DNA from: Candidatus Pacearchaeota archaeon
GTDB taxonomy: Archaea > Nanobdellota > Nanobdellia > Pacearchaeales > GW2011-AR1
Assembly (NCBI GenBank): GCA_016188825.1
Contig: JACPHA010000006.1
Span: forward strand, 10,300 to 74,299
DNA: 64,000 bases
Direction of reading: 5' to 3'
Of the stretch, positions 365 to 55,546 are shown piece after piece; position 1 is the first letter of the stretch; each line of letters begins with the position of its first letter. Below the pieces are notes generated by a model. It saw only the letters and a list, made by a program, of their open reading frames with translations, was not told the origin of the DNA and ran no database searches. The translations under genes and the position numbers were made by a program.

Positions 365-400
365 TATAGTCGAGGACAATGATAATTTTCCATTTTGTCA

Positions 401-518
401 TTGACTACATCAAGATTTATTTAGTTTTTAAATCTTGAATGTGTTCAAGAACTATGTTCTTGACATCAAGGGAAAGACGTGCAAATTTGGTAAAAAACTT
501 GCGTCTTTCACTATAGAT
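401..518 (+). repeat. interspersed palindromic element, long form, copy 1
   Basis: Roughly 85-90% identical over ~118 nt to 54283-54398. Hairpins CAAGATTTA/TAAATCTTG, TCAAGAAC/GTTCTTGA and GAAAGACG/CGTCTTTC. Core ends in TCTTGACAT. Confidence 0.85.
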
Positions 519-519
519 A

Positions 520-3500
520 TTAATTGTCAGCATTACAATTATCTAAGCTATCCCCCTCTTTAATTAAAATTCCGCTGACACTAGCACTATTTGCGTCCAA
601 TTCAGGATACAATCTAATATCATTTTTCTCAAAATAATTCAAGACCTCTTTAATTTTGTCTGAATTTTCTAAAGCATTTATCTTCGCTTCTGCTTCTTTA
701 GCTAATGTAAAACAAGAGCCTTGTGAAGTAACCAAAAATTGACCTATAGAAGTAATATCTTCCCCTGAAACAACATAAATATAATGTCTAGTGGCAATTG
801 ATCCTATAAAAATATCTGTCTTTCTTCTACTCTCGTCAACAATCCAATAAACATATTTTCCTTCATTAACTGGATCCTTGTCTATATCTAAAAAGTATTC
901 TCTTGGTTTTTCTTCAATAACTGGCTTTTCTAATTGCCTATAGACTCTAAGTTGTTCTGAATTGCTCGAAATAAGGGGGTCGTCTTTTGTTCTTACAACA
1001 AAATAAAATTCAGGATCTCTCCCAGTTCCAAACAGCCCGTCTCTAACATAAATTGAATCCCACTGAACCATTGCTATTTTATCTATTCCAATCAAAGAAC
1101 TGATATTTTTCTCTAAATCATCACTACTAATAAAATCCATCTCATATATTTCAAATACAACTTCTTCTCCTATGCAAGCATTGTTTCCTTTAACACTCAA
1201 ATAAACTATTCCCTCTGAAACAGAATTGATTTTTTCAATATTACTATTAACCCACTTCGGCTCTGACAAAACACATTTTTCTTCTCTAACTCCTACACTG
1301 CTCTGCCATCCCTCAATCCTTGCTCCATCAATCTCACTAACCCTTATTCCTAAAAGTCTTCTTCCTTCAGAATTAATTTCAATCAGACCATCGCTTGTAA
1401 TAACCTTTCCAATTTCAACATAATTTCCGCCGTTATTATAAAAAACTGTTTCACCTCGAACATAATATTCGGTTGCTCTAGTTGTTCCTCCCAGTCTAAG
1501 AATAAGATTAATTCTCTTGCTTGCATCATAACTTTCCCTCAAAACAAATGAAGTTGTTGTACTTTTAACTTTCTCGGCATTCTCCCTCTCCGCATCGCTC
1601 TTGAAAAATCGCAAAGCAATCTTTTCATTAACCTGTCCTTTAATCAATAACAATCTCGCCCTATGCTCCCCAAAAACAAATTTTTCAGAAATAAATTCAA
1701 TCCTCTCCAAAATTTTCTTTCCCTCTGTTTCAACATCTTGCTTTCTGCTCAAACTTGCTAAAGCATCTTCCAAACTCTTTAATTCGGCATCTGCATTGCT
1801 CCCAAGTAAAACTCCTCCTTCTTTTTCCAAATTCGCCAATCTTGTCTTTTCTAAATTTTCAATAGTTTCATTAATCGCTCCAACATTATTTGATGTTATA
1901 GCATTACTCACGCTTTTCTCATCGAGCCAACAGCTTATTTTTTCATTGCCGCAATAACCAACTTTAACAAATCTCGCAGGATCTGTCGCACTCCCTGGAT
2001 TCTGGCTTGCGCAGATTCTAACAACTCCACGATTATAAATTTCAGGAGATATAAGTTCTTCAGCACTGCTTTGCAAATTAGGATTCAACAATGCTCCAGC
2101 ACTCGATGTTCCTCCGATGCACTCGCTTTCAGAAGTTATCTGTCTCTTATCGATTTGCTCCTTGACATAAATATCCCTCAATTGATCAATCGCAAAACTC
2201 GTTGAAACTTGTTTAAACCCGCACTCTTCCTCCTCATTAATCCTCACACAAAGTTCCTTATATCCTTCAGGCGCTGTGAAATCTTTTGTTTCAGAAGCAT
2301 ATTGCCCCAAGGGTATAAATCCCGAAGCAACCTGAACTCTCTGCGCAATTGAATAATATGAGCTCTCCGGAGGATTTCTCAAATAAACGCTAAAGTGAAC
2401 TCCAGAATCTTTGCCTGAAAAAATATGATAAAATAATTTGTATTGCGCTGTCGCCGGAACAGTTGCAGTGCTGTATGTCTTCGAATCAAACCATGCATGA
2501 AATTGCGGCGGCGAATCTGGTTCTACTAGTGCTTTAAACTTGCTAGGCGCTTTCGCAGAAATAAATGTCTTGCAAAGTTCTCCAGAAACCTCCTCAACTG
2601 CAGAGCTAACGCTCAACGGATTTGCGCCGTATCTTCCTTCAGTCCTAACTTGAAATGCCTTCAAAGAATTAACAGCATAGCTCTGCGTAAAATAATTCAT
2701 TGAGTTCTGCGCATTCTGCCATGCCGAATTCACTGTTAGATATTCCCCTCCTCCTCTTGTTCCCTGCCCGTAAGCAATCTCGACTAATTTTGGAATCAAA
2801 ACATTTACAAAAGGAGCAACTTGGCTCCAGAAAAACTCACATGTATAAACAGAATAAATCTGATCGCAAATCCCAACCATTCTTCCTGTATTTACATTCT
2901 CCTGCAAGCAATCTCTATAATTCCTCAATATAGATGCCCATCCATCAATTCCAGCTTGAACGCCGCTCAAGCAGACCGGCACAGCAATACCTTCTCTTAC
3001 ATTTGGCAAACATAACAATGTGCTTCCGACAATTCCCGACTGTTGAACATTTGCAACTGGAAACTTTCCGCCAAAATCGCAGCGCGACGACGGGCATATA
3101 ACAGGATCGCAAACATTAAACAATACATAGCAATCTCTTGGTGACATGAAATCCTGACATTGTGTTTCCGGAATACCCGCAGCAGGTTTTCCAATCTTAA
3201 ATCTCTCTCCGCCAATCATCACATAATTCTGTCCTCGTGAATATTGTCTCGCCGCCTCTTCAACTGCATTAACTGCTCTGCTAACTAAACTCCTCGCCTC
3301 GCTCTCGCTTAATCCGGGGAAAAATTCTAGTGGCTGTCCTGTATTCAAATTAATTATCTGGCACAAATCGTCTCCGTATCCAGACTGAAATTCAATTCTC
3401 TTATTCTCTCCAACATTGCACAATCTAAAACTGACAACCCTTCCGCTTGCATCAAACGCTCCAATGCCCCCAAAAGCAGGCAGTGTTTGTGTCGTCGCTG

Positions 3501-6500
3501 CATACCATCCATTCCTGACATCAAAAGGCACAACAGCAGGCATGCCTTTGTAAGGCTCGGTCTCATAATATCTAACTTCTCTGTCTTGCGAAGAAATTTC
3601 ATTATGATAACTCACTCTGTCAGTTGATTTTATATTCCCAATCCCATATCTGCTCGCAAACTCAGGAGTATTATCTAACTTGGTGTATCTTCCATCAGCT
3701 TCCTTCTTCCAAACCTCCTTGACATTATAAATTCCTGTTCTTGAATCAACCTCTTCCAAACCCAACAAATAAGCAGCGCTTTCAAATTTACTCCCTGTAT
3801 CAGAACTGCTTGCTGGCACTATCACACTTGAAACGTGTGTAACTCCAGTGCCAAAATTAGCTTGTGATTTCAAATTTCCAGATCTGACAACCTGCGCAAC
3901 CCTTGTGCTCTGCGCATTTATGCTTGCAAAAATCGGCGACGGCAATCCTTGTTTTGTCGCTTCCTGTTCTTGCGCAATAAGTTTATTTAATGCAACATTT
4001 TCATCGATTTTCTTAACCAAGTCAGTTGACTTATCATTAAGATTTTTCCCTTGCTCTGAACTCAATCCGGATTTCTGTAATTCACAATATAACATAGTTG
4101 TCCTGATAGAATTCATGCTCGCTGCTCCACTATTAACATTGTCTTCAGATAACAATTCACTGGCTTTCTTTTCATTTATAACACAATCTCCATACTGCCT
4201 TCTCGCCTCTGCAGCCAGCTCAATTTCAGCAGCATCAGTATTAATGCTCTTCCCAAAAATTCCATTGCTTATGGTGTGTTTTTCCTGAATTGGCTTTATC
4301 TTCTCATTAATTTTGTTTATCGCTGTCTCTGTTTTTGAAACATCAGATTCAATCTCGCTCGCTTTGTCCAAATAGCAAGCATTCAAATTAACATAATCTC
4401 CTTTCGCAACCATGTCGGCGCAAATATTTTTCCATCCGCTCTTTCCATTCATAACTTCCTGCCTTGCTATTGACTTGCCACTCAAACCAGAAAGAAAGCT
4501 CTTAAATGTCAAAGCGGCCGCTGTCCCAAAACACGCCTCTTTCAAATGCGTTACTGTTTCTCCCAAATTCTTAGAAATTTTCTCCCAATCCTTTATCGTA
4601 CCATTCAACTTTTCTATTTTCTCCAACGCCTTGTCCGGAGTTAATTTAATTCTCCTTTTCTCAATTCCAACTCCGACAGTCAAATTAGTAACTGTCTGCG
4701 TCCCCTCTGCTCCAGGAATCAATCTTATCTTCGCAAACTTCTCAACATTTGTCTTATGCAATTTAACTGTCAAGCCGCAAATCTCTTTTGCCTGCTCGTC
4801 TATTCGCAACTCAACGCTTGATTTTCTCATCGTAAAACCTCCAGTCTCATTTGCGCAATAATATCCCAATCTTGCTCTTTCCACATCTAAATCACCCAAC
4901 TCAAACTTTGCCCTTGTCCCTCCCCTTATAACTTCAGTCGCATTCCTCTCTCCTAATTTGATTTTCTCGACCCTATCTTCAATAAATATCTCAGCGCTCT
5001 GCTCTTTCAAAGGCTTACTCAAACTAACAAGCCTTATCGCCCTTGTCCTGTCATCAAACTCAACAACTGTTCCGGCAAAACTCGAATCAATCTCAGACAA
5101 AGCATTCAACTCATCTAAATAACCGTTTGTATTTCCCTCTGGATATTTCTCTGTCAATTTGTTAATCAATCTCGCTTGCTCATTCTCCATTCCAAACTCT
5201 CTCGCTAATTCCTTGGCTTTCTCCAAAGCAATCTCCCCATAATATCTGCCTTCTCCCAAACCGCCTTCTTTTGTATCAGGGTAATCATCAGCAACTTGCT
5301 CATAACTCTCAATCGCTTTTCTGTAATATTCTCTTGTCTTAGCAGAAACATTCTTTGCGGCAAAACTGCTTATTCTAAAATCAGGATAGTTTTTCTTATT
5401 TTCCCCATATTCTTTCAAAGAGCTCCACAACAAAACAAACCATTTTTTATTTTCTTCACTGTCTTTGCCAACGACAGATTGATCAACATCTCCATCACTC
5501 GAAACAATTATCTTCCCTTCTTTCAATAATTGCCCATTTGTATTCAAAACATAAGTTCCTCTTTTACCCGAGTCTTTCAACTCGCTTAAATCAATTCTAT
5601 AATCTCCATTGCTTTCTTTTGTTGGCTCTTTTAAAACACCTTCAGCATAAAATATTCCAAACTTTCCCCCTTTTCTATTCAATCCTAAAACAAATTCTTT
5701 TCCTTGACAGCTTCCAATGACTTCCCCGCTCTGCCCATCGTCTTCAATATTAATGCTTCTTATTGTGCATCTATCATCCATAAACCTAGCGCCCTGATAA
5801 ACATCAAAAATATCTGTTCCATCGTCGCTTGAAACTTCTATCTTTGCCTTTTTTTCAGCAGAAATAAATCCGTCATAAGCTATTTCCAAACTCGCTCTGC
5901 AATACATTCCAGGCAATATTATCTTCCTTGATGTTTGTCCGCGATCAACTCTAACCGTGCTAACCTTTTTATCGCCATAATAAACAGACACAAATGCTAT
6001 GTTGCTGTCCGCCTCTTCTAATCTAACAAAATATCTTCCCCTCCAAAAACTATTTTTTACTTTTTCTCTCTGCCATTCCTCTTCTGTCATCGGCGTTAAA
6101 ATAAACTCTGCCCTGCCAACCCCCAGAGAATTTCCTGCATTATACTCTATCTGCGCGCTCAGAGTCACATTTATATTTTCAGGCAGCTTGCTTTCATCTG
6201 GCTGTCTTTTCAAAATCAAAACAACATAACCAATATTATTAACAAGCGGGCTTCCTAAAAGTTTGTCATGTGTCCTCAAGGCTGCTTTCGCAGGATGAAA
6301 GCCATAGTCAACAATTCCCTCTGGTTTTTCTCCAATGAATCTCATATTTCTTATGCTCTTTATATCAACTAATGGATTTATCTTGTAAGCATCGATCTGG
6401 CAAAACACCGGAACATTTTGCTCTGCTAACAAATCACTTCTAACAATCACCGGCTGGCAACCTGCAGGAGCAATGCTCAACAGCAAATCCTGTCTTGCTT

Positions 6501-6723
6501 CGCATGTTTCTCTGTCTCCTAAAATGGGCCAATAATTTTTAATATCCCCGCCGCTATAATAAGTCTCAAAACTAGGTCTGTTTTGGTATGTTGCAGAAAA
6601 ACCTCCTTGAGAGCTTCCACTAAAACTTCTGTAAACAGCAGCATTCGCAAAACCAGCCTCAAATATTGTTCCAGCAAGAACTGCTAAAACAAAAAAAGAA
6701 ACTATTTTTTTCTCAAATATCAT
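520..6723 (-). CDS. giant secreted/surface protein (2067 aa), function unknown
   Basis: Uninterrupted 2067-codon ORF. N-terminal signal-like segment KKIVSFFVLAVLAGTIFEAGFANA. Cys-rich central block. ATGA start/stop overlap with the upstream gene. No catalytic motif recognised. Confidence 0.85.
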   Translation of the reverse strand: MIFEKKIVSFFVLAVLAGTIFEAGFANAAVYRSFSGSSQGGFSATYQNRPSFETYYSGGDIKNYWPILGDRETCEARQDLLLSIAPAGCQPVIVRSDLLAEQNVPVFCQIDAYKINPLVDIKSIRNMRFIGEKPEGIVDYGFHPAKAALRTHDKLLGSPLVNNIGYVVLILKRQPDESKLPENINVTLSAQIEYNAGNSLGVGRAEFILTPMTEEEWQREKVKNSFWRGRYFVRLEEADSNIAFVSVYYGDKKVSTVRVDRGQTSRKIILPGMYCRASLEIAYDGFISAEKKAKIEVSSDDGTDIFDVYQGARFMDDRCTIRSINIEDDGQSGEVIGSCQGKEFVLGLNRKGGKFGIFYAEGVLKEPTKESNGDYRIDLSELKDSGKRGTYVLNTNGQLLKEGKIIVSSDGDVDQSVVGKDSEENKKWFVLLWSSLKEYGENKKNYPDFRISSFAAKNVSAKTREYYRKAIESYEQVADDYPDTKEGGLGEGRYYGEIALEKAKELAREFGMENEQARLINKLTEKYPEGNTNGYLDELNALSEIDSSFAGTVVEFDDRTRAIRLVSLSKPLKEQSAEIFIEDRVEKIKLGERNATEVIRGGTRAKFELGDLDVERARLGYYCANETGGFTMRKSSVELRIDEQAKEICGLTVKLHKTNVEKFAKIRLIPGAEGTQTVTNLTVGVGIEKRRIKLTPDKALEKIEKLNGTIKDWEKISKNLGETVTHLKEACFGTAAALTFKSFLSGLSGKSIARQEVMNGKSGWKNICADMVAKGDYVNLNACYLDKASEIESDVSKTETAINKINEKIKPIQEKHTISNGIFGKSINTDAAEIELAAEARRQYGDCVINEKKASELLSEDNVNSGAASMNSIRTTMLYCELQKSGLSSEQGKNLNDKSTDLVKKIDENVALNKLIAQEQEATKQGLPSPIFASINAQSTRVAQVVRSGNLKSQANFGTGVTHVSSVIVPASSSDTGSKFESAAYLLGLEEVDSRTGIYNVKEVWKKEADGRYTKLDNTPEFASRYGIGNIKSTDRVSYHNEISSQDREVRYYETEPYKGMPAVVPFDVRNGWYAATTQTLPAFGGIGAFDASGRVVSFRLCNVGENKRIEFQSGYGDDLCQIINLNTGQPLEFFPGLSESEARSLVSRAVNAVEEAARQYSRGQNYVMIGGERFKIGKPAAGIPETQCQDFMSPRDCYVLFNVCDPVICPSSRCDFGGKFPVANVQQSGIVGSTLLCLPNVREGIAVPVCLSGVQAGIDGWASILRNYRDCLQENVNTGRMVGICDQIYSVYTCEFFWSQVAPFVNVLIPKLVEIAYGQGTRGGGEYLTVNSAWQNAQNSMNYFTQSYAVNSLKAFQVRTEGRYGANPLSVSSAVEEVSGELCKTFISAKAPSKFKALVEPDSPPQFHAWFDSKTYSTATVPATAQYKLFYHIFSGKDSGVHFSVYLRNPPESSYYSIAQRVQVASGFIPLGQYASETKDFTAPEGYKELCVRINEEEECGFKQVSTSFAIDQLRDIYVKEQIDKRQITSESECIGGTSSAGALLNPNLQSSAEELISPEIYNRGVVRICASQNPGSATDPARFVKVGYCGNEKISCWLDEKSVSNAITSNNVGAINETIENLEKTRLANLEKEGGVLLGSNADAELKSLEDALASLSRKQDVETEGKKILERIEFISEKFVFGEHRARLLLIKGQVNEKIALRFFKSDAERENAEKVKSTTTSFVLRESYDASKRINLILRLGGTTRATEYYVRGETVFYNNGGNYVEIGKVITSDGLIEINSEGRRLLGIRVSEIDGARIEGWQSSVGVREEKCVLSEPKWVNSNIEKINSVSEGIVYLSVKGNNACIGEEVVFEIYEMDFISSDDLEKNISSLIGIDKIAMVQWDSIYVRDGLFGTGRDPEFYFVVRTKDDPLISSNSEQLRVYRQLEKPVIEEKPREYFLDIDKDPVNEGKYVYWIVDESRRKTDIFIGSIATRHYIYVVSGEDITSIGQFLVTSQGSCFTLAKEAEAKINALENSDKIKEVLNYFEKNDIRLYPELDANSASVSGILIKEGDSLDNCNADN

Positions 6724-8612
6724 GTTCCCTCCGAAAACTCCAAATTTACTTTGCTCTCTTCAAACAGCTCAAAATTCCTCTGCAATTCCTCAATTGACCT
6801 CGGCGCAGGCAAAGCCCCAACTTCAATTATCATCTTTCCTTTCTCCAGCTGATTGTCCAAAATATAGCTCTGTAATTGTCCTCCGCCAATTAGCTCCCCG
6901 TCTATCTTTGTCTCTGGCACATTAATATCAAAGCACTTTTCTTTAGTTCCTCCAAACAACCCTAACAATCCGGATTTTGGAACATCAACACACTCTGTCT
7001 TTGTGCTTGCAGGAATCACAACACTTGAATTACCGTAAACATAAACCTTAACCTCATAACTTCCCTCGCTCAATTTTATTTTATCTTGCTCCGGCAGTGC
7101 TATTGCGTTTGTCTTGCCATCATCCCGCACAAAAGTCGCAATGGCTGTTCCTTTCAATCGCTGCCCGCCAACCTTTAATTCAACATCCACTTCTCTTTCT
7201 CTTTCCATTATAATCTCTTTAAACCTCTCTGAATTGCTCGAGAACAACTCTCTCTTTTCTGCGTACCCTTCTGCTCTTGCATGCAAATAACCATTAACAC
7301 AGGCCGGCGCAACTCCAAGAAATCTTCCGTCTACACTCTCTCCAAGCCTGCATCTCTGATCAAAACACTCATAACTAATGTTCGCATCAACTTCATTCAA
7401 ATTAACATCATAAAGATTAACCTCTATTTCCTGTGTCTTAAACTCGCATAAATCAAATTCTTCTTGCGCAATTTCTTCTGATATTACTCTGTTTGCAATG
7501 CTTTCTCTCGGCACATTATTATCTATCACAACAACAATCGGAAACTGGAAAATTTCTTCATTGTCATAAATCTGTATTAAAACTGGAAAACTGACATCAT
7601 AAACAAAATGATAAGGAATATAGCAGAATCCCATTACTCCTGCTCCCTGCTGATTTCCTATAGGCTCTGAAATCATTATTTCGTCGTCAACACCCTCTCC
7701 TTCTATCTCAATCTTAGCAGGCCAATTTTTTAAATACATAAAATTCACTGCCTCATCTGTTGATTTATCTAAAATAAAATAATTGCTGTTGTTTCCTCTC
7801 GCCCTATAATAATCTCCTCCTAATTTTATAGCCAAAATATTTTCTTCCAATCCTTCTCTCAAGCCGCTGATTACCTCTTGTGTTGCCCAAATCTTCGGCC
7901 CGCACTGTATCTCAACACCATCGACCGGCGCATACAAATACAAAACATCGGTAGCATACTGCTCCAAAAATGCCTCTTTCTTTTCCTTTTCATAAATTTC
8001 TAAAGCAATAGAATAAAACTTTCCCAGCTTGCTATCAACCGCAACGTTATGAGCAACTTTTCTTCCGCTCTTCCCCGCTTTCCTAACTGACATCTCGCTA
8101 TTTACTTCAACATTAACTCTATTGTTTTCAATATCAACTCTTGCCCTTGGCTCGCTCAAACTAATTTCAAACCCTTGAGCATAAAAATTTTCAAAATCAC
8201 AAACAACAAGGCCTTCCTCAACATAATCCTCAATCTCTTTTTCAATCTCCTCTTTGTTTGGAACTTGCTCTTTAATCAAACTATTTCCTGCAGCATAATA
8301 CCAATAAGGAACAGGAAACCCTAAAAAGTTCAAATGCGAGGAAAATGGAGCATAGTCGCTCCCTGGCACATAAGCAGGAACATCAACATATCCTCCCTGT
8401 GTTTCAGCCAGTTGTATCGCTCCTCTTGTCTCTTCTTCTATGCAACCCTGATAATACTCAAAAACCTTAACCAACTCCTGCGGTATCCCTCCTGCTCCAA
8501 GAACTTGCCCGCGCACAACAAAATAAGCAATAATTCCACCAACTATAATGACCGCAATTATAACAAAGATAGTAACTTGTCCTTTTTTATCAAACTTTTT
8601 TTCTTCAAGCAT
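6720..8612 (-). CDS. large protein (630 aa) with prepilin-type (class III) signal
   Basis: N-terminus MLEEKKFDKKGQVTIFVIIAVIIVGGIIAYFVV matches the K-K-G/A then Q plus hydrophobic helix pattern of the pilin-like genes at 53-59 kb. Translationally coupled to the giant gene. Confidence 0.75.
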   Translation of the reverse strand: MLEEKKFDKKGQVTIFVIIAVIIVGGIIAYFVVRGQVLGAGGIPQELVKVFEYYQGCIEEETRGAIQLAETQGGYVDVPAYVPGSDYAPFSSHLNFLGFPVPYWYYAAGNSLIKEQVPNKEEIEKEIEDYVEEGLVVCDFENFYAQGFEISLSEPRARVDIENNRVNVEVNSEMSVRKAGKSGRKVAHNVAVDSKLGKFYSIALEIYEKEKKEAFLEQYATDVLYLYAPVDGVEIQCGPKIWATQEVISGLREGLEENILAIKLGGDYYRARGNNSNYFILDKSTDEAVNFMYLKNWPAKIEIEGEGVDDEIMISEPIGNQQGAGVMGFCYIPYHFVYDVSFPVLIQIYDNEEIFQFPIVVVIDNNVPRESIANRVISEEIAQEEFDLCEFKTQEIEVNLYDVNLNEVDANISYECFDQRCRLGESVDGRFLGVAPACVNGYLHARAEGYAEKRELFSSNSERFKEIIMEREREVDVELKVGGQRLKGTAIATFVRDDGKTNAIALPEQDKIKLSEGSYEVKVYVYGNSSVVIPASTKTECVDVPKSGLLGLFGGTKEKCFDINVPETKIDGELIGGGQLQSYILDNQLEKGKMIIEVGALPAPRSIEELQRNFELFEESKVNLEFSEGT

Positions 8613-8891: not shown

Positions 8892-9095
8892 ATGAGAAGC
8901 CAATTCGAAAGTTTTGCATATGCAAATTCATTTATGAATCTAAGGAGAGTTATTCATAACTTTGTTAATCCACATCAAGAACTTAAAGGAAAAACACCAG
9001 CAGAAAAAGCAGAGATAAAACTTGATTTAGGGAGAAACAAACTCTTTGAATTAATTAGATATTTGTCAAATAATAAACATCATTCGCTAAGATGA
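8892..9095 (+). pseudogene. C-terminal remnant of a DDE (rve/IS6-like) transposase
   Basis: The 67-aa ORF contains IHNFVNPHQELKGKTPAEKAEI, the conserved YNxxRPHxxLxGxTPxE-type tail of DDE transposases. No catalytic core lies upstream. Confidence 0.55.
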
Positions 9096-9118: not shown

Positions 9119-9189
9119 TGGCCTCAGGCAGAATCGAACTGCCGCTCCATCCACGTCAAGGACGTGTTCTACCACTAGACTATAAGGCC
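9119..9189 (-). tRNA. tRNA-Val (anticodon GAC)
   Basis: Reverse complement GGCCTTATAGTCTAGTGGTAGAACACGTCCTTGACGTGGATGGAGCGGCAGTTCGATTCTGCCTGAGGCCA folds as a cloverleaf. 7-bp acceptor stem, anticodon stem CGTCC/GGATG with loop TTGACGT, T arm GGCAG-TTCGATT-CTGCC. One D-stem mismatch. CCA not encoded. Confidence 0.85.
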
Positions 9190-10909: not shown

Positions 10910-13252
10910 TTATTTATTTAACCTATTTAGATTATCTCTTGCATTTTGATGAGTCGAATCTATTTGCAATGCTCTTTCATAAGTTTTTTTCGCATCTTGT
11001 ATCAATCCTTGTTTTTCAAAAGCAACGCCAAGATTATTGTAAGCATCACAATATCCTGAATCGATTCTAATAGCTTCTCTAAACTCCCTTATTGCTTCAT
11101 CATAGTTTCTTATTCCTAAAAGCTCATTTCCAAGACAGTAATGATATGTTTTTTCCAGAGGATTTATGGAAACGGCTTTTCTATATTCTTCTATAGATTT
11201 AGAATGATTATTTATTATAAGATAACAATATCCCAATTGGCAATGAATGTCTGCTCTCCTTTCATTATTCAAAGCAACTTTTTCTAAGTGTGAGATTGCT
11301 TTTCCATATTCTTCTTTTAAATAAAAACAATTTCCTAAGTATAAATGAGAGTTTGTGAAATTCCTATAATTCTGCGGAGCAGATTCAATAATTGATTCTA
11401 GGTTTTTTATTGCGCTATCGTAATTCTTTTTTTCATATTCAGACACTGCTTCATTATATAGTTTGTCAAAATCCTTGGGTTTAGTTTCTTTTTCCGGATT
11501 TATTCTTTCTGCTTTTCCACTTGTAGCTTGTTGCCCGTTTTGATTTATATTTTCAATTTCTCTAATCCTGCTCCAATACTGAAAGGCTCTTTCTTGATTT
11601 TTTCTTTCGTTATATTCTAAAGCTCCCAAACTATACAAAGCATCTACCTGATTAGGATTCATCTCCAAGATTTTTTTAAATTGTTTTTCTGCATAATCTG
11701 TCCATACGCCACCTTTCTTTAGAAAAACATTTCCAAGATTTAAGTTTGCTTGAACAGCAAGACTATAATCGGGTTCTTGACGTAAAGAATCTTCTAAATA
11801 TGCTATGGCTCTATCTAAATCGCCCAGCTTAAAATATAAAACACCAATATTATGAAAAAGAATTGGAGAATCTTTATGATATTTTATTTCATCGTCATAG
11901 ATTTGCAGGGCTTCTTTAAAATTGCCTTGTTGCTCTGCCTTTGTTGCTTTGTTGATAATATTCTCCAAATCTGTCCCATCAACAACATAACTATTTTTTG
12001 GTAATGGAAAGATGAGCTCCAAATCCTTCGGGTTTGTTTCATCCATCTCTTTTCTTATATATTCTATTTTCCCATCCAAAGATAATTTTGCAAAATAATC
12101 TATTTTGCTCCAGTCGGCATTTTTTGGAATTACATAATAAGTACCTTCTTTATAAGGCAAGCTTATTTTTGGATTAGAATATTTAACTACCAAGTCTAAT
12201 GATTTAGAAAATTTCTTATTTTTATCTACAATATCCCCACTTTCGTCAAACTCATAAATGCCTCTAGGCAAATATTTTTTAACTATGGCGTCAGTTGGTA
12301 ATTGTATTGTCTCTACCAAATACTCGTCTTCCACAATTTTCTTTGCAAGTTTTGTAGTTATATTTCCATTTTCATAATTAACATAAACAAAATCATTAGT
12401 TGAAGTAAAATTAGGAATCTCTTCTGCAAAAAGATTAATGCTTCCAAAGTCTAAATTAATAAATCTCGGTTCTATAGGAGGATGAACACTAACAATTTCT
12501 CCTATTTCTGAAAGCACATTATTTTCACACCAAATAAATTTTATTTTATTATTATCATCGACAAATTTAACATATTTTCCTTCTCCGATGGGTATTACTG
12601 TGCCAGCAATAAATTCTATTTTTTCTTTTTCTTTTTTATATGCGCTAAAGGCTATTTCTTGTCCAGTTTTATTAAGAGAGTCTCTAAGATATTTACCTAA
12701 CTCTTCATTTGAATATGCAAGAATTATTGGAGAACCAATAATATAATTCTCTTGTATTGTTTTTGGAGGTTTTTGTAATTGTTTATTTTTATCAGTAACG
12801 TTAATTGTGGTATTTCCAATTTCAAAGTCATTAAGAAACCATTTTCCTGTATATTTCCCAGGAGTTAACCGTCCAGGGTAGTAAGTAAGCCAAGTAAACC
12901 AATCATTGTTTGGAATTGTGCCATGGTTTTCTATTCTGATTAATCTTTCTTTACCATCAAATCTTTCTTTACCATCATATAACCTTAAATATAGTTCACT
13001 TCCAATTTGATTAACAATTCTGCTCATTAAAGTAACATATTCTCCTGTAGAAAAATTATTTTTTTTACCAATTATCTCATTAGGAAAGTCAACTAATCCA
13101 TCTTTATTTAAATCACTCCAGTAATTTGCCGCAAAAAATTCGTTTTGAGCATTATTATGTTGAGAGGGAGCATAATATCCTGTTTCAACTAGACAGCCAG
13201 ATGATAAGGAAAGCAATGCTGTTAGGCCTGATTTAACAATTTTTCTGAGCAT
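10910..13252 (-). CDS. modular lipoprotein with C-terminal TPR repeats
   Basis: Likely start MLRKIVKSGLTALLSLSSGC (lipobox). N-terminal domain is paralogous to 13260-14165 and the middle domain to 14155-14988. The C-terminal half has many TPR-like repeats (AxxYxxKALxxxP type). Confidence 0.75.
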   Translation of the reverse strand: MLRKIVKSGLTALLSLSSGCLVETGYYAPSQHNNAQNEFFAANYWSDLNKDGLVDFPNEIIGKKNNFSTGEYVTLMSRIVNQIGSELYLRLYDGKERFDGKERLIRIENHGTIPNNDWFTWLTYYPGRLTPGKYTGKWFLNDFEIGNTTINVTDKNKQLQKPPKTIQENYIIGSPIILAYSNEELGKYLRDSLNKTGQEIAFSAYKKEKEKIEFIAGTVIPIGEGKYVKFVDDNNKIKFIWCENNVLSEIGEIVSVHPPIEPRFINLDFGSINLFAEEIPNFTSTNDFVYVNYENGNITTKLAKKIVEDEYLVETIQLPTDAIVKKYLPRGIYEFDESGDIVDKNKKFSKSLDLVVKYSNPKISLPYKEGTYYVIPKNADWSKIDYFAKLSLDGKIEYIRKEMDETNPKDLELIFPLPKNSYVVDGTDLENIINKATKAEQQGNFKEALQIYDDEIKYHKDSPILFHNIGVLYFKLGDLDRAIAYLEDSLRQEPDYSLAVQANLNLGNVFLKKGGVWTDYAEKQFKKILEMNPNQVDALYSLGALEYNERKNQERAFQYWSRIREIENINQNGQQATSGKAERINPEKETKPKDFDKLYNEAVSEYEKKNYDSAIKNLESIIESAPQNYRNFTNSHLYLGNCFYLKEEYGKAISHLEKVALNNERRADIHCQLGYCYLIINNHSKSIEEYRKAVSINPLEKTYHYCLGNELLGIRNYDEAIREFREAIRIDSGYCDAYNNLGVAFEKQGLIQDAKKTYERALQIDSTHQNARDNLNRLNK

Positions 13253-13259
13253 TTTGGGA

Positions 13260-14165
13260 TTAAGGAATATTATCAATAACACTAATACGTGTAGTTCCAA
13301 TTACTTTCCAATTGATAGACCATGCTGCTCCATAGTGACCAGGATTAAGTCTTCCCGGTGCATACTGATGCCATGCAAACCAATCATTAGATTGAATTTT
13401 TCCATAGTTCAATTCTTCGATTTCTTCGATTTTTCTTTTATTATTTTGAGTTTTTTCATACGGTCTAAACTCATATAGCCTAAGTTCTAATGGATTTCCT
13501 GTTTGATTAAAAATTCTACACATTAACATAATGTTTTCGTTTTTAGAGAATGTTGTTTTTTGACCTGTTATCTCACCTGGATAATCAACCCTTTTGTTGC
13601 CATTTAAATCACTCCAGTAATTTGCCGCAAAAAATTCGTTTTGGTCGCGATCATTTCGTCGAGTAGAATAAACTATAGATTCCTTTTTTTGTTCTTCTTT
13701 GTTAAAAACATTGATTTTTATTTCTCCAATATGTCTCTCATTAAGAAACCATTTTCCTGTATATTCGCCTGAAGCAAGCCACCCAGGAGCATAATAACTA
13801 AATAAATAATAATTATCATCAATTACTCGATGTCTCTTTCCTTGTTCGATAAGAATTCCCTTATCATCATACAACCTAAAAGCCAAACCATTTCCAATAC
13901 AATTATCAATGTTTGATGCAAATCTAATGTGTTCATTTGTAAAAAAATTATTTTTTATTCCTATTAGCTCATTAGGGATCTTAATATTTCCATCGCCATT
14001 TAAATCACCATAGTCATTACATGCAGAAAACTTGTATGTACAATCTTGATTTTGTTTTTTATTCTCTAAAATTTGAATGGGTTTATGATAATCATAAGGA
14101 ACCGTGCAAGCTGACGAAAACGAAACCAGCGCCGCCAAGCCCATTTTAATTATTTTATTTTTCAT
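13260..14165 (-). CDS. lipoprotein with two copies of the EFFAANYWSDLN...TGKWFLN domain
   Basis: Signal MKNKIIKMGLAALVSFSSAC. Two tandem repeats are homologous to the N-terminal domain of the TPR protein (EFFAANYWSDLNG... and FSACNDYGDLNGDG...). Confidence 0.75.
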   Translation of the reverse strand: MKNKIIKMGLAALVSFSSACTVPYDYHKPIQILENKKQNQDCTYKFSACNDYGDLNGDGNIKIPNELIGIKNNFFTNEHIRFASNIDNCIGNGLAFRLYDDKGILIEQGKRHRVIDDNYYLFSYYAPGWLASGEYTGKWFLNERHIGEIKINVFNKEEQKKESIVYSTRRNDRDQNEFFAANYWSDLNGNKRVDYPGEITGQKTTFSKNENIMLMCRIFNQTGNPLELRLYEFRPYEKTQNNKRKIEEIEELNYGKIQSNDWFAWHQYAPGRLNPGHYGAAWSINWKVIGTTRISVIDNIP

Positions 14166-14988
14166 TTCGCCCACTGCCTAGTATGCTTTGCTCATTGGTC
14201 ATGGGTGGCTTATCTTCTATAGTATTTTTTGCATATCTTGCGGTAATGTTTCCATTGTCATAATCTATGTGTAAGAAATTATTAGTTGGTGTATAGGTTG
14301 ATTCATCTTTAATAATTTCCTCTATAAAGAAATTTGTACCAGCATAATTTAATCTTCTTAAACGAGAATCTTGTTTTTCTCTTGAAACCTTTACTATTCG
14401 AGCATTCGATGTAAACTTCCCATTATCGCTCAATATAAATTTTTCTATGCTAAAGTTATCATCAACAAATTGAACATAATTTCCCCCTAATTCTTCACTA
14501 CCACTAATTGGCATTAATGTTCCACCAACATACTCAAATTTATTATCTTTTTCTCTGAGTACAACAAATTCCTTATCTCTATTATGAAGCCAGAGGCGTA
14601 TTGCTTCTCCATAAAGAGAGGAGACATATTCAACTGGATTTGTTATTGAAGTATCTTCCGTACCAACATAAACTCTTGATTGCTCCTTACCAAAAATCCT
14701 AGCCATTTCTTCTATAGAAGGAAATGGTTTATTCCATTTACATCTAGGATCCCACGAAGGACAAGTGCCTGGTGGATGTGGCATAGTTAGAGGTTGTATA
14801 GTTAGAGAAGAACCGTCGTATATAACACTACCGAAATTGCCGATGGGGCCGTAATTTCCCATTGAGCCAGGCATACTAGGGATATTTGGGCCAAAACAAC
14901 CACCTCTTGAGCTAGAAGGGGGCAAACCATTTGCTATGCTATAAGAAAGCAGTGCTGCCAAGCCCGAAGCAATATTTTTTCTTTTCAT
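14155..14988 (-). CDS. secreted paralog of the middle domain of the TPR lipoprotein
   Basis: Signal-like N-terminus MKRKNIASGLAALLSYS. The stretch YVQFVDDN...NNFLHIDYDNGNITARYAKNTIED parallels YVKFVDDN...NDFVYVNYENGNITTKLAKKIVED in 10910-13252. Confidence 0.7.
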   Translation of the reverse strand: MKRKNIASGLAALLSYSIANGLPPSSSRGGCFGPNIPSMPGSMGNYGPIGNFGSVIYDGSSLTIQPLTMPHPPGTCPSWDPRCKWNKPFPSIEEMARIFGKEQSRVYVGTEDTSITNPVEYVSSLYGEAIRLWLHNRDKEFVVLREKDNKFEYVGGTLMPISGSEELGGNYVQFVDDNFSIEKFILSDNGKFTSNARIVKVSREKQDSRLRRLNYAGTNFFIEEIIKDESTYTPTNNFLHIDYDNGNITARYAKNTIEDKPPMTNEQSILGSGRNEK

Positions 14989-15314: not shown

Positions 15315-16667
15315 TTATCTCCTCGGGGAATAATTATTGTTTCCTCTAATCTGTAATCCCCCGTTGTTAATATTTGGATTATTATATAAGCCATTATTTA
15401 ATCCTCCATAAACCCCTCCACCAACAACATTTAATTTGCCGTGGTCTTTTAGAATACTTCCATAATCCGCGATATTAGGATTAAGTTCAATTGTCTTGCC
15501 TATATCCCTAGGCACATAATTTATATCTCCTTTTATATCTACTGCAGGAATTGCCATTTTAACTAACTCTGGACTTATCGTTGCTGTCCGAAGCTGTTCA
15601 GACAAACTTCCTGTAATCTGCAGCTGCGTGTCCTTTAAAACAGGATAATTTTGTAAAACTCCAGAAGATGAAAGAATATCACTAAGTTTTGCGCTTTGCA
15701 TTGGTGTAGATGCTATATCTGTTACAAATTTGTCTATGCCTAATTTATATGTATTGCTCCATATAAAATGTGAAGAACTGTCTCTTTTAAATTCTGGTGT
15801 TGGAACTTTTAAAGCAGTCATATCTCCACCCAAAAAGTTTCCTTTATTACCAATTGTTGGAGAAGTATAATTATTCATGATATCTGCAGGAGTGTGCTGA
15901 TAAACATTAACATTATGTGCCTTAAATGTTTCAGCCATAGACTTAACAGAACCCCCATTAACAACTTCTCCATTTAAAACTATTACATGCACATTCCAAT
16001 TATTTTTCGCTAAATTTTCAGCTAATTTGGGCATCCCAGCTAAAGTTGTATCAATAAATTTATTAGTATCTTGTCTAGTAAGCTCTTTCTCAGTTTGACT
16101 CAGATTTAATTTTCCTGTAATGGGAGCAACAATAGGCCGCATAGGCGCAGAAGCAAGAACTTCCAAAGGGGCATTTAGTTTTATCGCGGGATCTAAAAGA
16201 ATAATTGTGCTCCCTTTATTATTTTCTATAAATTTTGGATTTTCTTGCATGTATCTTAACATAGATACTCCACCGGTACTATAACCACCGAATACATTGT
16301 TTTTTCCTTGGATATTGCCCACCGTATTATTTATCGCAATTTTATTTTGCTCCGATCCGTTATGACCTCTATTTGGTAAATCTATAATTTGTGTTTGAAA
16401 TCCTTTATTTTGCATTGTCTGATTTGAATTTGCCCAAGCAGCACTAGTTTGATTTAAACCATGAACAATAACAAAATTTCTATTTTCATTTCTATCCTCA
16501 AATTTTGGCGTATAGGTTATTGGCTGTAAATATGGAATATTTATCTCTTGATCAAGTTTTTTTGGCGGAATATAAGGATCTTGAGCAAATGCTTTAGAAG
16601 AAAAAATACTTGCTTCTGCTAAAAGAGCAACAAGTCCTAGTTTTTTTATTTTGTTTATTCTTTTCAT
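15315..16667 (-). CDS. secreted alpha/beta-hydrolase (esterase/lipase-like)
   Basis: Signal MKRINKIKKLGLVALLAEASIFSSKAFA. HGLNQTSAAW oxyanion-type motif and GYSTGG nucleophile elbow (GxSxG). Confidence 0.6.
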   Translation of the reverse strand: MKRINKIKKLGLVALLAEASIFSSKAFAQDPYIPPKKLDQEINIPYLQPITYTPKFEDRNENRNFVIVHGLNQTSAAWANSNQTMQNKGFQTQIIDLPNRGHNGSEQNKIAINNTVGNIQGKNNVFGGYSTGGVSMLRYMQENPKFIENNKGSTIILLDPAIKLNAPLEVLASAPMRPIVAPITGKLNLSQTEKELTRQDTNKFIDTTLAGMPKLAENLAKNNWNVHVIVLNGEVVNGGSVKSMAETFKAHNVNVYQHTPADIMNNYTSPTIGNKGNFLGGDMTALKVPTPEFKRDSSSHFIWSNTYKLGIDKFVTDIASTPMQSAKLSDILSSSGVLQNYPVLKDTQLQITGSLSEQLRTATISPELVKMAIPAVDIKGDINYVPRDIGKTIELNPNIADYGSILKDHGKLNVVGGGVYGGLNNGLYNNPNINNGGLQIRGNNNYSPRR

Positions 16668-16712
16668 ATCTTTTCTAAGGTTAAGACAATATTTATATCT
16701 TCCCAATATAAA

Positions 16713-16805
16713 ATATATTCTAAAATATTTTAATATATTAAGTAAAGTTTATATATTCTAAAATATTTTAATATATTAAGTAAAGTTTATATATTCTAAA
16801 ATATT
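16713..16805. repeat. 38-bp tandem direct repeat (about 2.4 copies) in a divergent promoter region
   Basis: ATATATTCTAAAATATTTTAATATATTAAGTAAAGTTT occurs at 16713-16750 and 16751-16788, with a partial third copy. Each copy carries a TTTATATA TATA-box-like word. Confidence 0.9.
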
Positions 16806-16814: not shown

Positions 16815-17813
16815 ATGAAAAGAAAGCTGATCAAACAAGGGTATAACACAATGACTATAACTTTGCCAATAGAATGGATTAAGAAGTTAAATCTTAAGAA
16901 GAGGGAAGAAGTTGACGTTATAGATGAAGGAGATTCATTAATAATAAGCGGAAAACAAAAAAATGAAGAAAAGAGTGCCACACTAGACATCTCCAATTTC
17001 ATAGTACCGATGCTGTGGAAATTTTTTCAATCTATATATAGAAAAGGTTATAATGAAGTAAAAATAATCTTCGAACCAAGTAAAAAAACATATCCTAATA
17101 TTTATCAATACTTTTCTCCTTTGTTAGGCGATAAAGTTTTTGGGAAAAAGCATCCTTCAAAGCCTGCTATTGAAACAATTCAAGATTTGGTTAATAGATT
17201 TATCGGAATGGAGATAATTGAAACAGGAAAGAATTATTGCATAGTGAAAGATATGACTGAGCCGACTACAAAAGAATACAACAACGCATTCAGAAGAATA
17301 TTTATGCTTATTTCTGGAATGTTTGAAAGAACACTTAGTGCAATAGAGAAGGACGAGATAGGGGATACAGAGATATGTGAAGAAATTCATGCACTCGATA
17401 CAAATATTGATAGGTTTATTGATTATTGCTGCAGAATGCTTAATAAAGTAAACAATTCTGCTCCTCAATCGAAAAAACCAGCGATATTTTCTACTCTATT
17501 TATTCTTGAGTTATTATCTGATGAATTTAAAGATATTGCAGACCATTTAGCCATTACGCATAAGAAAGTAAAAATTTTGTTTCCTCTTGCAGAAAAAGTA
17601 AGAGAACACTTTAATTTTTATGAAAAAACTTTTTTCAAATTTGAAGGAGACTTAGCAATGCAATTCGGAAAAAATTCTCTTTCTATTTTAGATGAGCATC
17701 TTAGGTTAAATAAAAAAATAAAAGGAGAAAATAAAAGTATAACAAGACATCTTATGCAGATAAGCAAATATCTGTTATCATTGATAGAGCTTAGAATAGA
17801 AATGGAGTATTAA
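16815..17813 (+). CDS. AbrB/SpoVT-domain plus PhoU-like regulator
   Basis: N-terminal KQGYNTMTITLPIEWIKKLNLKKREEVDV is a SpoVT/AbrB swapped-hairpin motif. The rest is a long helical region, as in archaeal PhoU-type phosphate uptake regulators. Confidence 0.55.
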   Translation: MKRKLIKQGYNTMTITLPIEWIKKLNLKKREEVDVIDEGDSLIISGKQKNEEKSATLDISNFIVPMLWKFFQSIYRKGYNEVKIIFEPSKKTYPNIYQYFSPLLGDKVFGKKHPSKPAIETIQDLVNRFIGMEIIETGKNYCIVKDMTEPTTKEYNNAFRRIFMLISGMFERTLSAIEKDEIGDTEICEEIHALDTNIDRFIDYCCRMLNKVNNSAPQSKKPAIFSTLFILELLSDEFKDIADHLAITHKKVKILFPLAEKVREHFNFYEKTFFKFEGDLAMQFGKNSLSILDEHLRLNKKIKGENKSITRHLMQISKYLLSLIELRIEMEY

Positions 17814-17922
17814 AGTATAGCAACTGACTTAAATAATTCCTCAGATCGTCAGTTGCTATATTCGAGAGAACAAAAAGCAATGAGGAAATATTTTGGTCTC
17901 TCGTTATATTCTATCTTTTTTT

Positions 17923-20310: not shown

Positions 20311-20395
20311 GAGAAATCTTATGGATTTCTCTGCACAGAGAATTATAATTTACCTTAATTCTCTTGTGTTCAAGATTCTTGACGAATCTTGACAT
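20311..20395 (+). repeat. interspersed palindromic element, variant copy
   Basis: Hairpins GAGAAATC/GATTTCTC, AGAGAATT/AATTCTCT and TCAAGATT/AATCTTGA, ending in TCTTGACAT. Sits 45 nt upstream of the ATG at 20441. Confidence 0.7.
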
Positions 20396-20857: not shown

Positions 20858-21042
20858 AAGCAAATAATTTTATTAGTCATGACAAAGACAACGATATCAT
20901 TAAGTTTGTCTAAAGAACTAGTTGGGAAAATCTTCCAGGAATGGTGAATAATAGACACGTGTAAACTAATCTGGACAGGAGTAGAAAGGTATTTAAATCC
21001 ATTATCTTTATAAAGATAATGGTAATAGTGAATGAAATAACT

Positions 21043-21672: not shown

Positions 21673-21673
21673 G

Positions 21674-22929: not shown

Positions 22930-23072
22930 CTATAGAGGACTTTGAATAACCCCTATTTTTTGCTTTCTTTCAAAGACTTCAACTTCCAAGTTGAATGTAT
23001 CAAAGAACTTGTTTTTTGAGTCCTTCTTAGAGAGTTTTGAAAAACCCTAAAAACTTTCAAAACTCTCTATAG
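22930..23072 (+). repeat. 143-nt MITE-like structured element, copy 1
   Basis: Near-identical to 52724-52865. 8-bp terminal inverted repeat CTATAGAG...CTCTATAG. Internal palindrome TTCAACTTccAAGTTGAA. 14-bp stem hairpin at 23029-23068. Confidence 0.85.
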
Positions 23073-23888: not shown

Positions 23889-24004
23889 TCTCTTTTAAGA
23901 AAGAATTAAATTATAAACCTTGCTAAAACAATTCTTTTTGTATCATATGATATATCTAAAGTCGTTAATTTTTGACCAGTAGGACTTTAGATATCTATAA
24001 CTTT

Positions 24005-30068: not shown

Positions 30069-30166
30069 AATCAAAAAGTCCTTGTGTGTGTTTGGACTTT
30101 TGGACACCAAGAATTCTGAAAATTAAATTCTTGGGTGTGCTCAAGAATTGGAAATTCTTGACATAA
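30069..30166 (+). repeat. interspersed palindromic element, short-form full copy
   Basis: Hairpins AAAAGTCC/GGACTTTT, CCAAGAATT/AATTCTTGG and TCAAGAATT/AATTCTTGA, then CAT. 63 nt (30071-30133) match 52941-53003 with one mismatch. Confidence 0.85.
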
Positions 30167-49802: not shown

Positions 49803-49822
49803 TTTCTAAAATTTTTCTTATT

Positions 49823-55533: not shown

Positions 55534-55546
55534 TTCAAAAAACAAA

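Follow-up and report, generated by a model that had tools for sequence, protein, structure and literature searches.

To our knowledge, repeats of the repetitive extragenic palindrome and bacterial interspersed mosaic element type (REP/BIME) are considered a bacterial feature, as are the domesticated transposases that go with them. Archaea do have members of the IS200/IS605 family, and palindrome-associated transposable elements (PATEs), found for example in Haloquadratum, are its miniature derivatives; transposition of IS608 and ISDra2 is directed by the lagging strand. One end of the REP palindrome is tagged by a conserved tetranucleotide, GTAG or CGTC (PMC3733652). A 2018 survey of Y1 HUH proteins lists only the IS200 type for Archaea (PMC6006769), and archaeal integrons have been reported (PMC9668308). 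We analysed a stretch of 64,000 nt from a Candidatus Pacearchaeota archaeon (assembly GCA_016188825.1, contig JACPHA010000006.1, positions 10,300 to 74,299 of the forward strand; hereafter the window), in which a double-hairpin repeat with TCAAGA/TCTTGA arms is present in six copies. The family to which these copies belong is a previously undescribed group of small palindromic DNA repeats of Woesearchaeota/Pacearchaeota-type DPANN archaea and, on the reading that we favour, the first REP/BIME-like non-autonomous hairpin element that we can find for Archaea. The host of the window is itself archaeal and DPANN-like, with a GC content of 34% and genes for a DRG-type GTPase, a Hef-like helicase/nuclease, RadA and archaeal-type pilins.

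Copies in the window and anatomy of the repeat

Five full double-hairpin copies (copies 1 to 4 and 6) and a truncated one (copy 5) are found in the window, all intergenic and on the plus strand (coordinates in Table 1). An earlier note on this DNA had described six same-orientation copies with compensatory changes, four following a plus-strand open reading frame (ORF) and two lying in divergent regions; counts, reading of the individual sites and covariance model scores bear this out. The window is 89% coding and the chance that six of six copies fall between genes is ~0.108^6 = 2e-6. The sequence TCTTGACAT occurs seven times (start positions 458, 20387, 30156, 44667, 46235, 52999 and 54338), always on the plus strand, versus 0.75 expected, and none of 100 shuffles reached this number. 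The pattern TCAAGA-N4-20-TCTTGA occurs eight times versus 0.19 expected. The TCTTGACAT at 46235-46243 (+) was rejected as a family copy: it has neither hairpins nor a match to the covariance model, is located inside the coding 3′ end of ORF 46218-47108(-) (reading ..HHVKKKHHK*), and is a chance occurrence. The covariance model (CM R1) was built from 30 distinct copies and used to score those of the window, where the plus strand of every full copy exceeds the minus strand by 14-17 bits. Folded as single-stranded DNA (ssDNA), the full copies reach -12.6 to -14.2 kcal/mol (z -5 to -6.6) and none of 200 shuffles was as stable; the values are -12.6 (z -5.0) for copy 1, -13.5 (z -6.6) for copy 2 and -12.6 (z -5.05) for copy 6.

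The stem extensions that the earlier note had read in the window (TTTA/TAAA, TTAA/TTAA, ATT/AAT, AC/GT, TG/CA and TT/AA) are all correct. They are complementary only within each hairpin, which speaks against the alternative fold, by pairing of the middle arms, that had been proposed along with them. Copy 1 follows the plan CA-[TCAAGATTTA..TAAATCTTGA]-A-TG-TG-T-[TCAAGAAC..GTTCTTGA]-CAT and copy 4, located between two plus-strand membrane-protein ORFs, the plan CG-[TCAAGAACT..AGTTCTTGA]-G-CG-TG-C-[TCAAGATG..CATCTTGA]-CAT. Copy 2, in a divergent intergenic region 46 nt 5′ of the ORF starting at 20441, has a variant foot in hairpin 1 (AGAGAATT..AATTCTCT) and TCAAGATTC..GAATCTTGA-CAT in hairpin 2. 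The foot of copy 3 is altered in a compensated manner (CCAAGA/TCTTGG); its array begins 9 nt after ORF 29831-30064(+) and ends 5 nt from the stop codon of the RHH-antitoxin ORF 30169-30381(-). Beyond what had been noticed before, copies 1 and 6 each belong to a longer repeat of ~165 nt that has a third hairpin, and an additional upstream hairpin is common to copies 3 and 5. Copy 6 is a double hairpin paralogous to copy 1, and the units of both were found as direct-repeat families D4 (90% identity) and D10 (79%). The copy 3 array is 98% identical to 52939-53003 of the copy 5 array (repeat D8). Copy 5 is a copy 3-type array from which the linker and hairpin 2 are missing, a truncation consistent with deletion between AATTCTTG repeats. 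Both kinds of unit recur in the related loci collected outside the window, which we designate by L-numbers (L003 etc.): the third-hairpin module is present 3′ of the double hairpin also in L009, L135, L136 and L139, and the copy 3 subfamily also in L005, L039 and L107.

The family consensus is 5′-C-N-[TCAAGA xx loop xx TCTTGA]-b-N′-G-T-G-b-[TCAAGA xx loop xx TCTTGA]-C-A-T, where b is one bulged base. Folding of 37 instances revealed that every hairpin extends 2 bp further past a 1-nt bulge. The bulge is on the 3′ side of hairpin 1 (type A; flanks C-N..b-N′-G) and on the 5′ side of hairpin 2 (type B; flanks T-G-b..C-A, then T), and the two extended stems adjoin each other with no linker between them. 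Types A and B are pseudo-inverted by the side of the bulge; they are not true inversions since their closing pairs differ. The basic unit is a perfect palindrome with the foot 5′-TCAAG..CTTGA-3′, a single bulged base and two closing bp. When the 30 distinct copies are aligned, 97.8% of the cells are paired, versus 27-46% with the partners slid, and double-sided changes are found at eight pairs. Covariation is full in both stems and in the 2-bp extension past the bulge. The pair past the bulge is AU in 15 copies, GC in 6, UA in 6 and CG in 3, and is never unpaired. The C at -2, a position left free in the search pattern, is found in 126 of 128 cases, while T follows ..GACA in 176 of 187 type-B hairpins (33 of 44 among the unascertained ones). 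The base after CAT is uniformly distributed (T 48, A 45, G 42, C 41), which marks a sharp 3′ boundary of the element. The tops of the stems and the loops vary freely yet remain complementary. Spacing of the inner arms is constant at 6 nt in all copies, whereas the loops range from 3 to more than 60 nt.

The collected DNA has 327 hairpins with a TCAAG foot, nearly all of which are flanked as type A or type B. They are organized in arrays of one to five hairpins, in which the A+B pair is the commonest core and the units are separated by linkers of 0-6 nt. The double hairpin is often followed by more type-B units with different stems, e.g. gc-TCCGAAATT..AATTTCGGA-CAT, and a three-tier unit TCAAAAAAACAA..[CCAC..GTGG]..TTGTTTTTAGGA is often found 5′ of it. 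Small hairpins are nested within the loops of some array hairpins, and neighbouring units are truly inverted in L017 and L032. The arrays are mosaic, with units gained, lost or nested. A conserved insert of ~45 nt (..AACTCCCTACTTTAGTTCGCGAGAAAGCA..) was observed in or beside hairpin 1 of L105, L144, L145, L023, L031 and L049; it may be a further module.

Distribution and dispersal

A 23-base exact pattern was searched in GTDB genomes (one per species), JGI/ENA metagenomes and viral contigs. It is matched by 33 GTDB loci, versus ~0.07 expected by chance according to our estimate; 32 are labelled Nanoarchaeota, Woesearchaeota or Pacearchaeota, and the remaining one is a 2.7-kb contig in a "Methanosarcinales" bin that may be mis-binned. 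At least 120 matching stretches were found in the metagenomes, mostly in aquifer (groundwater) and sediment samples. A single match was found in viral contigs, at the end of a tailed-virus fragment. A total of 143 distinct contexts were collected, with more than 140 distinct copies outside the window. The same core is shared by genomes with no more than 42% identity between their M16 peptidases, and must therefore be either strongly constrained or horizontally transferred. Rfam gave no match at gathering thresholds, and permissive E-values added nothing but noise; there was no match either in annotated collections of phages and plasmids, and literature searches retrieved no description of such a repeat family; the earlier statement that no named motif matches can be maintained for Rfam and the literature. 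The copy on the viral contig (L157 136-175, from IMG/VR) is at one end of a 12.9-kb sequence encoding tail-adaptor and sheath-like proteins, a sign that the element could also be carried by viruses infecting these archaea.

That the copies are mobile repeat DNA appears to us highly probable. A 120-nt array of two units (CAAAAAGAC..GCGTCTTGACAT) at L046 423-542 is precisely absent in L146, the two loci being 98% identical downstream and 91% identical upstream of the array site. The empty site of L146 (..CAAGAACAT|AAAAATG..) is inside a continuous ORF of 113 amino acids (aa) and is spanned by a weak DUF4258 match, while in L046 the ORF is broken by the array and a stop codon is reached within the insert. 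The event can be written ..GAACAT|[120 nt ending ..TTGACAT]|AAAAATG, in which ACAT forms the left flank and also closes the element on its 3′ side; this junction could reflect either ACAT as the target or a duplicated stretch of at most 4 bp. The left flanks of other arrays are AAAT, TAAT and TTAT. L005 and L023 share an orthologous divergent intergenic region, which holds a 4-hairpin array in the former and is free of arrays in the latter. One metagenome-assembled genome (MAG) carries five near-identical copies of ~115 nt at unrelated loci, closed by outer stems, and L013 and L015, which belong to one MAG, have a ~230-nt unit in common. Copies 1 and 3 coincide with the ends of short-read contigs of the window organism (L164; L034-L036). 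A copy 3/5-type array (ATCAAAAAGTCCTTGTGTGTGTTT..) is also found at a contig end ~1.4 kb past the end of the window (L162 2960-3000), on the plus strand and downstream of radA. The 189 distinct flanking proteins have almost no recurring family; a Pfam census of 150 neighbours returned housekeeping and toxin-antitoxin families together with PIN, nucleotidyltransferase and AAA_14 modules.

Other candidates for dispersal events or linked genes were discarded. A search for empty sites of the window copies found contigs with identical proteins that are short and end at repeats, and its nearest TauE homologues are at most 77% identical and have a different synteny. Deletion of arrays in silico, used to look for split genes, led only to artefactual gene fusions, and the indels of L116/L148 and L031/L065 are coding or trivial, with no elements involved. 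A nucleotidyltransferase of ~600 aa (L007, L017, L020), considered as a conserved neighbour gene, is inconsistently placed, and the census has no recurrent neighbour.

DNA palindromes, RNA helices and other explanations

The compensatory changes are real, and the dynamics of DNA palindromes explain them better than selection of an RNA helix does. Beyond the conserved foot, the stems contain 789 Watson-Crick pairs, six mismatches and no G:T pair (n = 795). This favours DNA because a fold at the RNA level should tolerate G:U. Eleven flip/flop pairs were found in which the stem is identical and the loop exactly reverse-complemented, several of them in the same element position, and one hairpin can occupy position A or B. 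Flip/flop loops likewise favour DNA since inversion of a loop is one DNA event, versus many simultaneous substitutions in an RNA gene. Templated strand-switching yields both perfect stems and flipped loops. The two strands fold equally well (-14.2 kcal/mol for the plus strand of copy 4 and -15.3 kcal/mol for its minus strand). A strand-specific fold, wobble-tolerant covariation and a curated match, by which a structured RNA would be recognized, were all absent. On the basis of the missing G:T pairs, the flip/flop loops, the folding of both strands and the share of antisense copies (see below), the small structured RNA family suggested in the earlier note is disfavoured. A caution follows for similar studies: compensatory changes in a repeated hairpin are not, alone, evidence of RNA structure.

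We favour a mechanism that is REP/BIME-like as a whole, i.e. non-autonomous hairpin repeats that spread within and between DPANN genomes, and consider it reasonably probable. In function, the nearest analogues would be bacterial REP/BIME/REPIN repeats or MITEs (see below). The functional form would be folded ssDNA or an extruded cruciform. A structure-specific enzyme acting in trans, with a logic like that of HUH/Y1 transposases, would read the foot, the bulge and the flanks, and would cut or join next to ..GACA|T. The sequence CTTG|A presumably resembles the nick or target sites of pC194-, phiX174- and IS91-type HUH systems. Stem perfection and loop flips would arise from hairpin processing or templated strand-switching, not from selection of an RNA fold. 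Arrays may grow since existing units present the same ..GACAT sequence, and copies would survive mainly downstream of genes, where insertions are tolerated. Hairpins transcribed at the 3′ side may secondarily or incidentally affect mRNA ends.

Several observations weigh against this explanation. The HUH/Y1 motif was not found in a six-frame translation of 0.93 Mb of related loci, transposases and integrases are missing from the 25 commonest Pfam families among the 150 neighbours, and none of the window ORFs tested is a Y1 transposase, an integrase or TnpB; the RAYT (REP-associated tyrosine transposase) or Y1 transposase for which the earlier note had proposed to look was found neither in the window nor in these related loci. 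With no enzyme found near the copies, the elements behave as non-autonomous. Only one clean pair of insertion and empty site was found; its junction is ambiguous within ACAT, and with it target specificity and any target-site duplication. The perfection of the stems could be partly due to the youth of the copies rather than to a requirement at the DNA level. The constant spacing of the inner arms also resembles the core site of a recombinase or operator, and the moderate bias towards sense orientation and 3′ ends also fits a role at the RNA level.

Apart from these searches, an ORF of 67 aa (..NPHQELKGKTPAEKAEI..) was observed at 8892-9095 of the window, beside tRNA-Val 9119-9189(-). It has no Pfam match and, by eye, looks like the C-terminal remnant of an integrase/DDE-transposase core.

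A more specific form of the favoured mechanism is possible, although we regard it as rather doubtful: the family might be the archaeal counterpart of the REPIN-RAYT system, with a hairpin-specific enzyme of Woesearchaeales/Pacearchaeales, HUH or of an unrelated fold, that recognizes foot and bulge and cuts at ..GACA|T. Such an enzyme would resolve or re-copy the hairpins, generating flip/flop loops and perfect stems. If true, this would be a new mechanism of transposition or hairpin resolution that is not derived from IS200/IS605, its products being possibly co-opted as 3′-end structures of the sense strand.

It is unlikely in our opinion that the family is a cis-acting RNA element of the 3′ (or 5′) untranslated regions of mRNAs, namely an end stabiliser, a processing or termination signal or the site of an RNA-binding protein, that spread by its usefulness. 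Gene context fits such an element in several respects (note that gene calls in the related loci, and with them all context counts, are based on crude longest-ORF heuristics). Copies are strictly extragenic and often begin 5-50 nt past a stop codon. The upstream gene is co-oriented in 64 cases versus 38, contexts are convergent in 23 and divergent in 13, copies between co-directional genes are sense in 25 cases and antisense in 13, and local coding is mostly on the strand of the element (46 versus 25 loci). The hairpins are stable, and all seven copies of the window organism, including the one in L162, are in plus orientation and adjoin a plus-strand gene. Against an RNA element stand the absence of any G:U among the 795 stem pairs, flip/flop loops for which there is no origin at the RNA level, and an opposite strand that folds as well or better. 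About one third of the informative copies are antisense, some copies are upstream of promoters in divergent regions (copy 2, 46 nt before the start codon), and one copy interrupts a gene. No Rfam family corresponds to the repeat and no T-run, as looked for in a terminator, follows CAT; short T-runs are found in some nested inner hairpins (CCAC..GTGG-TTTG).

The earlier note had also stated that plus orientation is kept regardless of the neighbouring genes. This is true for the window and does not extend to the family. In other loci the two orientations occur together at distances of 100 nt to a few kb, and copies of one locus that are separated by more than 500 nt agree in orientation about as often as they differ. 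GC skew of the window is negative almost throughout (-0.05 to -0.42), even over the plus-strand genes at 44-60 kb, and ~0 at 20-28 kb, from which the window probably lies in one replichore. An orientation directed by replication was rejected: 71 other instances have no link to GC skew (intercept 0.0004, p = 0.98 allowing for gene strand). We treat the uniform plus orientation as local, partly due to the adjoining plus-strand genes, and not as a rule of the family.

Two further explanations are improbable to a similar degree. The first is a double-stranded DNA (dsDNA) site, either for a dimeric regulator or as the core of a tyrosine recombinase (Xer-/dif-module-like) flanking accessory gene modules, consisting of TCTTGA-N6-TCAAGA. 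It would account for the fixed 6-nt distance between the inner arms in spite of variable loop lengths, and the spacer (N′GTG and bulges) is asymmetric as in recombinase cores. Copies often border toxin-antitoxin, AAA_14 ATPase and AbiE-like modules (L031, L126, L003 and window copies 2 and 3). In addition, two inverted arrays of ~170 nt at L057 860-1020 and 2150-2330 (= L060) surround a 1.15-kb segment, the only such pair of inverted arrays with DNA between them. The segment has an ORF for a thioredoxin-like protein of 125 aa and five class-II hairpins but no transposase, and could be an invertible or composite mobile segment. Such a site leaves unexplained the outer arms as well as the complementarity, within each hairpin, of the extensions and of the pair beyond the bulge. 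The commoner neighbour families include neither integrases nor recombinases, many copies flank housekeeping genes, and the window copies, 1-24 kb apart, do not form a cassette array.

The second is inert palindromic debris. Replication slippage or strand-switching would form and perfect the hairpins at quasi-palindromes, and segmental duplication and recombination would disperse them, with neither a dedicated enzyme nor a function. Perfect stems and flipped loops are expected from templated strand-switching, and the mosaic arrays fit as well. We nevertheless rate debris as a very unlikely origin because the identity of the 23-base core, and of flanks that the search did not impose, across genomes at ~42% protein identity demands strong constraint or active transfer; moreover, a discrete 120-nt unit with sharp ends was inserted in an ORF.

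The remaining candidates can be dismissed briefly: a bacterial -35 box (TCTTGACAT contains TTGACA) in an archaeal host with no consistent -10 element after it; a small minus-strand ORF starting with ATGTCAAGA, whose frames of 4-37 codons are not conserved; and C/D or H/ACA small RNAs, kink-turns or bulge-helix-bulge motifs, as the stems are perfect, boxes are missing and the 1-nt bulges share one middle strand. An IS608-style guide-target pairing of the 5′ C-N with the internal N′-G was rejected as stated because C-N is inside the array, the three-tier hairpin unit always preceding it in the CC subfamily.

The family described here provides a well-defined and widespread counterpart of REP/BIME-type repeats in DPANN archaea, whose small genomes are usually called streamlined, and points towards a hairpin-specific DNA enzyme yet to be discovered, as well as towards a source of genome plasticity that has been neglected in DPANN symbionts. 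The elements break short-read assemblies of their host organisms and are usable as a lineage marker. The covariance model offers a handle for locating the cognate protein by phylogenetic profiling.

Neighbouring features and comparison with known systems

Table 1. Hairpin repeats of the window, with positions, strands and scores of covariance model R1
Feature	Position	Strand	Remarks
Copy 1 (c1)	408-466	+	CM R1 61.4 bits
Copy 2 (c2)	20334-20395	+	CM R1 41.3 bits
Copy 3 (c3)	30105-30164	+	CM R1 66.2 bits
Copy 4 (c4)	44624-44675	+	CM R1 68.7 bits
Copy 5, truncated, one hairpin	52976-53007	+	CM R1 10 bits, partial match
Copy 6 (c6)	54290-54346	+	CM R1 62.8 bits
Extended ~165-nt unit holding copy 1	365-532	+	Ends inverted TATAG..CTATAG; paralogue of 54247-54412
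Third hairpin of the copy 1 unit	472-509	+	GAAAGACG..CGTCTTTC, then ACTATAG
Extended ~165-nt unit holding copy 6	54247-54412	+	Third hairpin at 54352-54389
Additional hairpin directly upstream of copy 2	20311-20331	+	GAGAAATC..GATTTCTC; one array with copy 2
Copy 3 array	30073-30164	+	Upstream hairpin TCAAAAAGTCC..GGACTTTTGGA at 30073-30103, then double hairpin
Copy 5 array	52943-53007	+	Upstream hairpin and one hairpin CA-CCAAGAATT..AAATTCTTGA-CAT
D2 multi-hairpin intergenic repeat, 113 nt	22930-23042	+	TCAAAGA-type feet, CTATAGAGGAC end
Second D2 copy	52724-52836	+	94% identity; shares with copy 5 a hairpin-rich intergenic region of 750 nt
Second-class hairpins	17816-17860, 23028-23069, 23952-23994, 52638-52680, 52682-52727, 54422-54464, 61583-61616		

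The D2 repeats are matched weakly by the covariance model (13.1 bits, 22977-23021 and 52771-52815) and are probably a sister element family. A second class of intergenic hairpins has a TAGRGA..TCYCTA / TATAG..CTATA foot, perfect stems of 12-15 bp and loops of ~19 nt. It clusters with the TCAAGA hairpins, in the same arrays, and its versions in L057 have CGATAAT-type loop motifs. The intergenic regions 52507-53255 (~750 nt) and 54093-54489 (~400 nt) are unusually long and consist almost wholly of stacked hairpin units that belong to several classes. An AT-rich unit of 38 nt is perfectly duplicated in tandem (16713-16788) in the divergent region of ORFs 15315-16706(-) and 16815-17813(+), where it forms the 12-bp palindromes TAAAATATTTTA and TTAATATATTAA.

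Genes for toxin-antitoxin-like and other modules were observed next to several copies. Copy 3 is beside an RHH antitoxin and a Fic/Doc-like toxin (30169-30709(-)), and copy 2 beside a winged helix-turn-helix (wHTH) protein and a nucleotidyltransferase (NTP_transf_5, AbiEii-like; 21019-22360(+)). Outside the window, L126 5800-10450 has eight model matches in 5 kb around an AAA-ATPase gene and a wHTH plus nucleotidyltransferase (AbiE-like) pair, and an AAA_14/DUF4143 gene is bracketed by three copies in L031. Copies 5 and 6 are within a type IV pilus/archaellum-like locus (47529-59170) with a FlaI/GspE-like ATPase, a FlaJ/TadC-like membrane protein and ~10 small proteins whose N-termini (..KKAQ..) are, by eye, class III signal-peptide-like. 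ORF 520-6723(-) codes for a signal-peptide protein of 2067 aa, adjoined by 6720-8612(-) for a 630-aa protein with no Pfam domain; their operon ends 54 nt from copy 1. Elsewhere in the window, three ORFs at 10910-14174(-) share a 99-nt repeat (62-71% identity) and a perfect 42-nt repeat, forming a paralogous cluster with a recurring N-terminal module, and a type II restriction-modification pair (TdeIII-family endonuclease and N4/N6 DNA methyltransferase) is found at 37485-39054(-).

Among described systems, CRISPR arrays bear no relation to the repeat, its copies being dispersed and its array units adjoining with very short linkers. The flip/flop palindromes of parvoviruses and other hairpin replicons also have one stem and a loop in two reverse-complement forms, a pattern generated by HUH Rep nicking and unfolding of hairpins. 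In contrast to these termini, the elements studied here are internal chromosomal repeats, no Rep was found, and the link is purely inferential. Integron attC sites resemble the repeat in the primacy of structure over sequence, extrahelical bases, a variable central loop and a location downstream of accessory genes, including toxin-antitoxin genes. They differ from it since R″/R′ boxes (RYYYAAC..GTTRRRY) are missing in our consensus, hairpins are paired, many copies are beside core genes, the widely spaced window copies form no cassette arrays, and IntI was not found in the commoner neighbour families.

Miniature inverted-repeat transposable elements (MITEs) with terminal inverted repeats, such as the Neisseria Correia and Sulfolobus SM elements, are likewise composite units of 100-230 nt with inverted ends, intergenic and multi-copy, and can be co-transcribed with adjacent genes. 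Inverted outer ends are present here in copies 1 and 6 (TATAGTCGAGGAC versus GTCTTTCACTATA) and in the JBBSXX01 subfamily (CCTAAAAAAAAT versus ATTTTTTTGGG). Unlike in such MITEs, the conserved part is internal and the outer ends differ by subfamily; array ends have no consistent or fixed-length target-site duplication, and no parent DDE insertion sequence was found. The ends of IS200/IS605 elements and PATEs are comparable in having two subterminal hairpins on one strand, with bulges as strand discriminators, and in being inserted beside a short sequence without obvious long duplication, which compares with the single event found here with ACAT on both sides. They are set apart from the repeat by tnpA/tnpB, which is linked to none of our copies. 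Unlike in IS200/IS605, the orientation of our elements is independent of GC skew and mixed at the kb scale, and the hairpins are perfect and interchangeable in position.

The REP/BIME/REPIN repeats with their RAYTs, whose likeness to the family was already pointed out in the earlier note, are retained as the closest analogy. There are differences: the host is archaeal, no RAYT was found, and the GTAG/CGTC tag is absent, the flanks being (A)C-N and TG-b..CA-T. REP stems are GC-rich and imperfect, whereas those described here are AT-rich and perfect, in hairpins that abut without spacer. The two groups have in common that they are short extragenic palindromes in many copies, with a conserved foot and flanks and a bulge or mismatch. 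Both are found as pairs and mosaic clusters, mostly downstream of genes, behave as non-autonomous and are divided into subfamilies within and between genomes.

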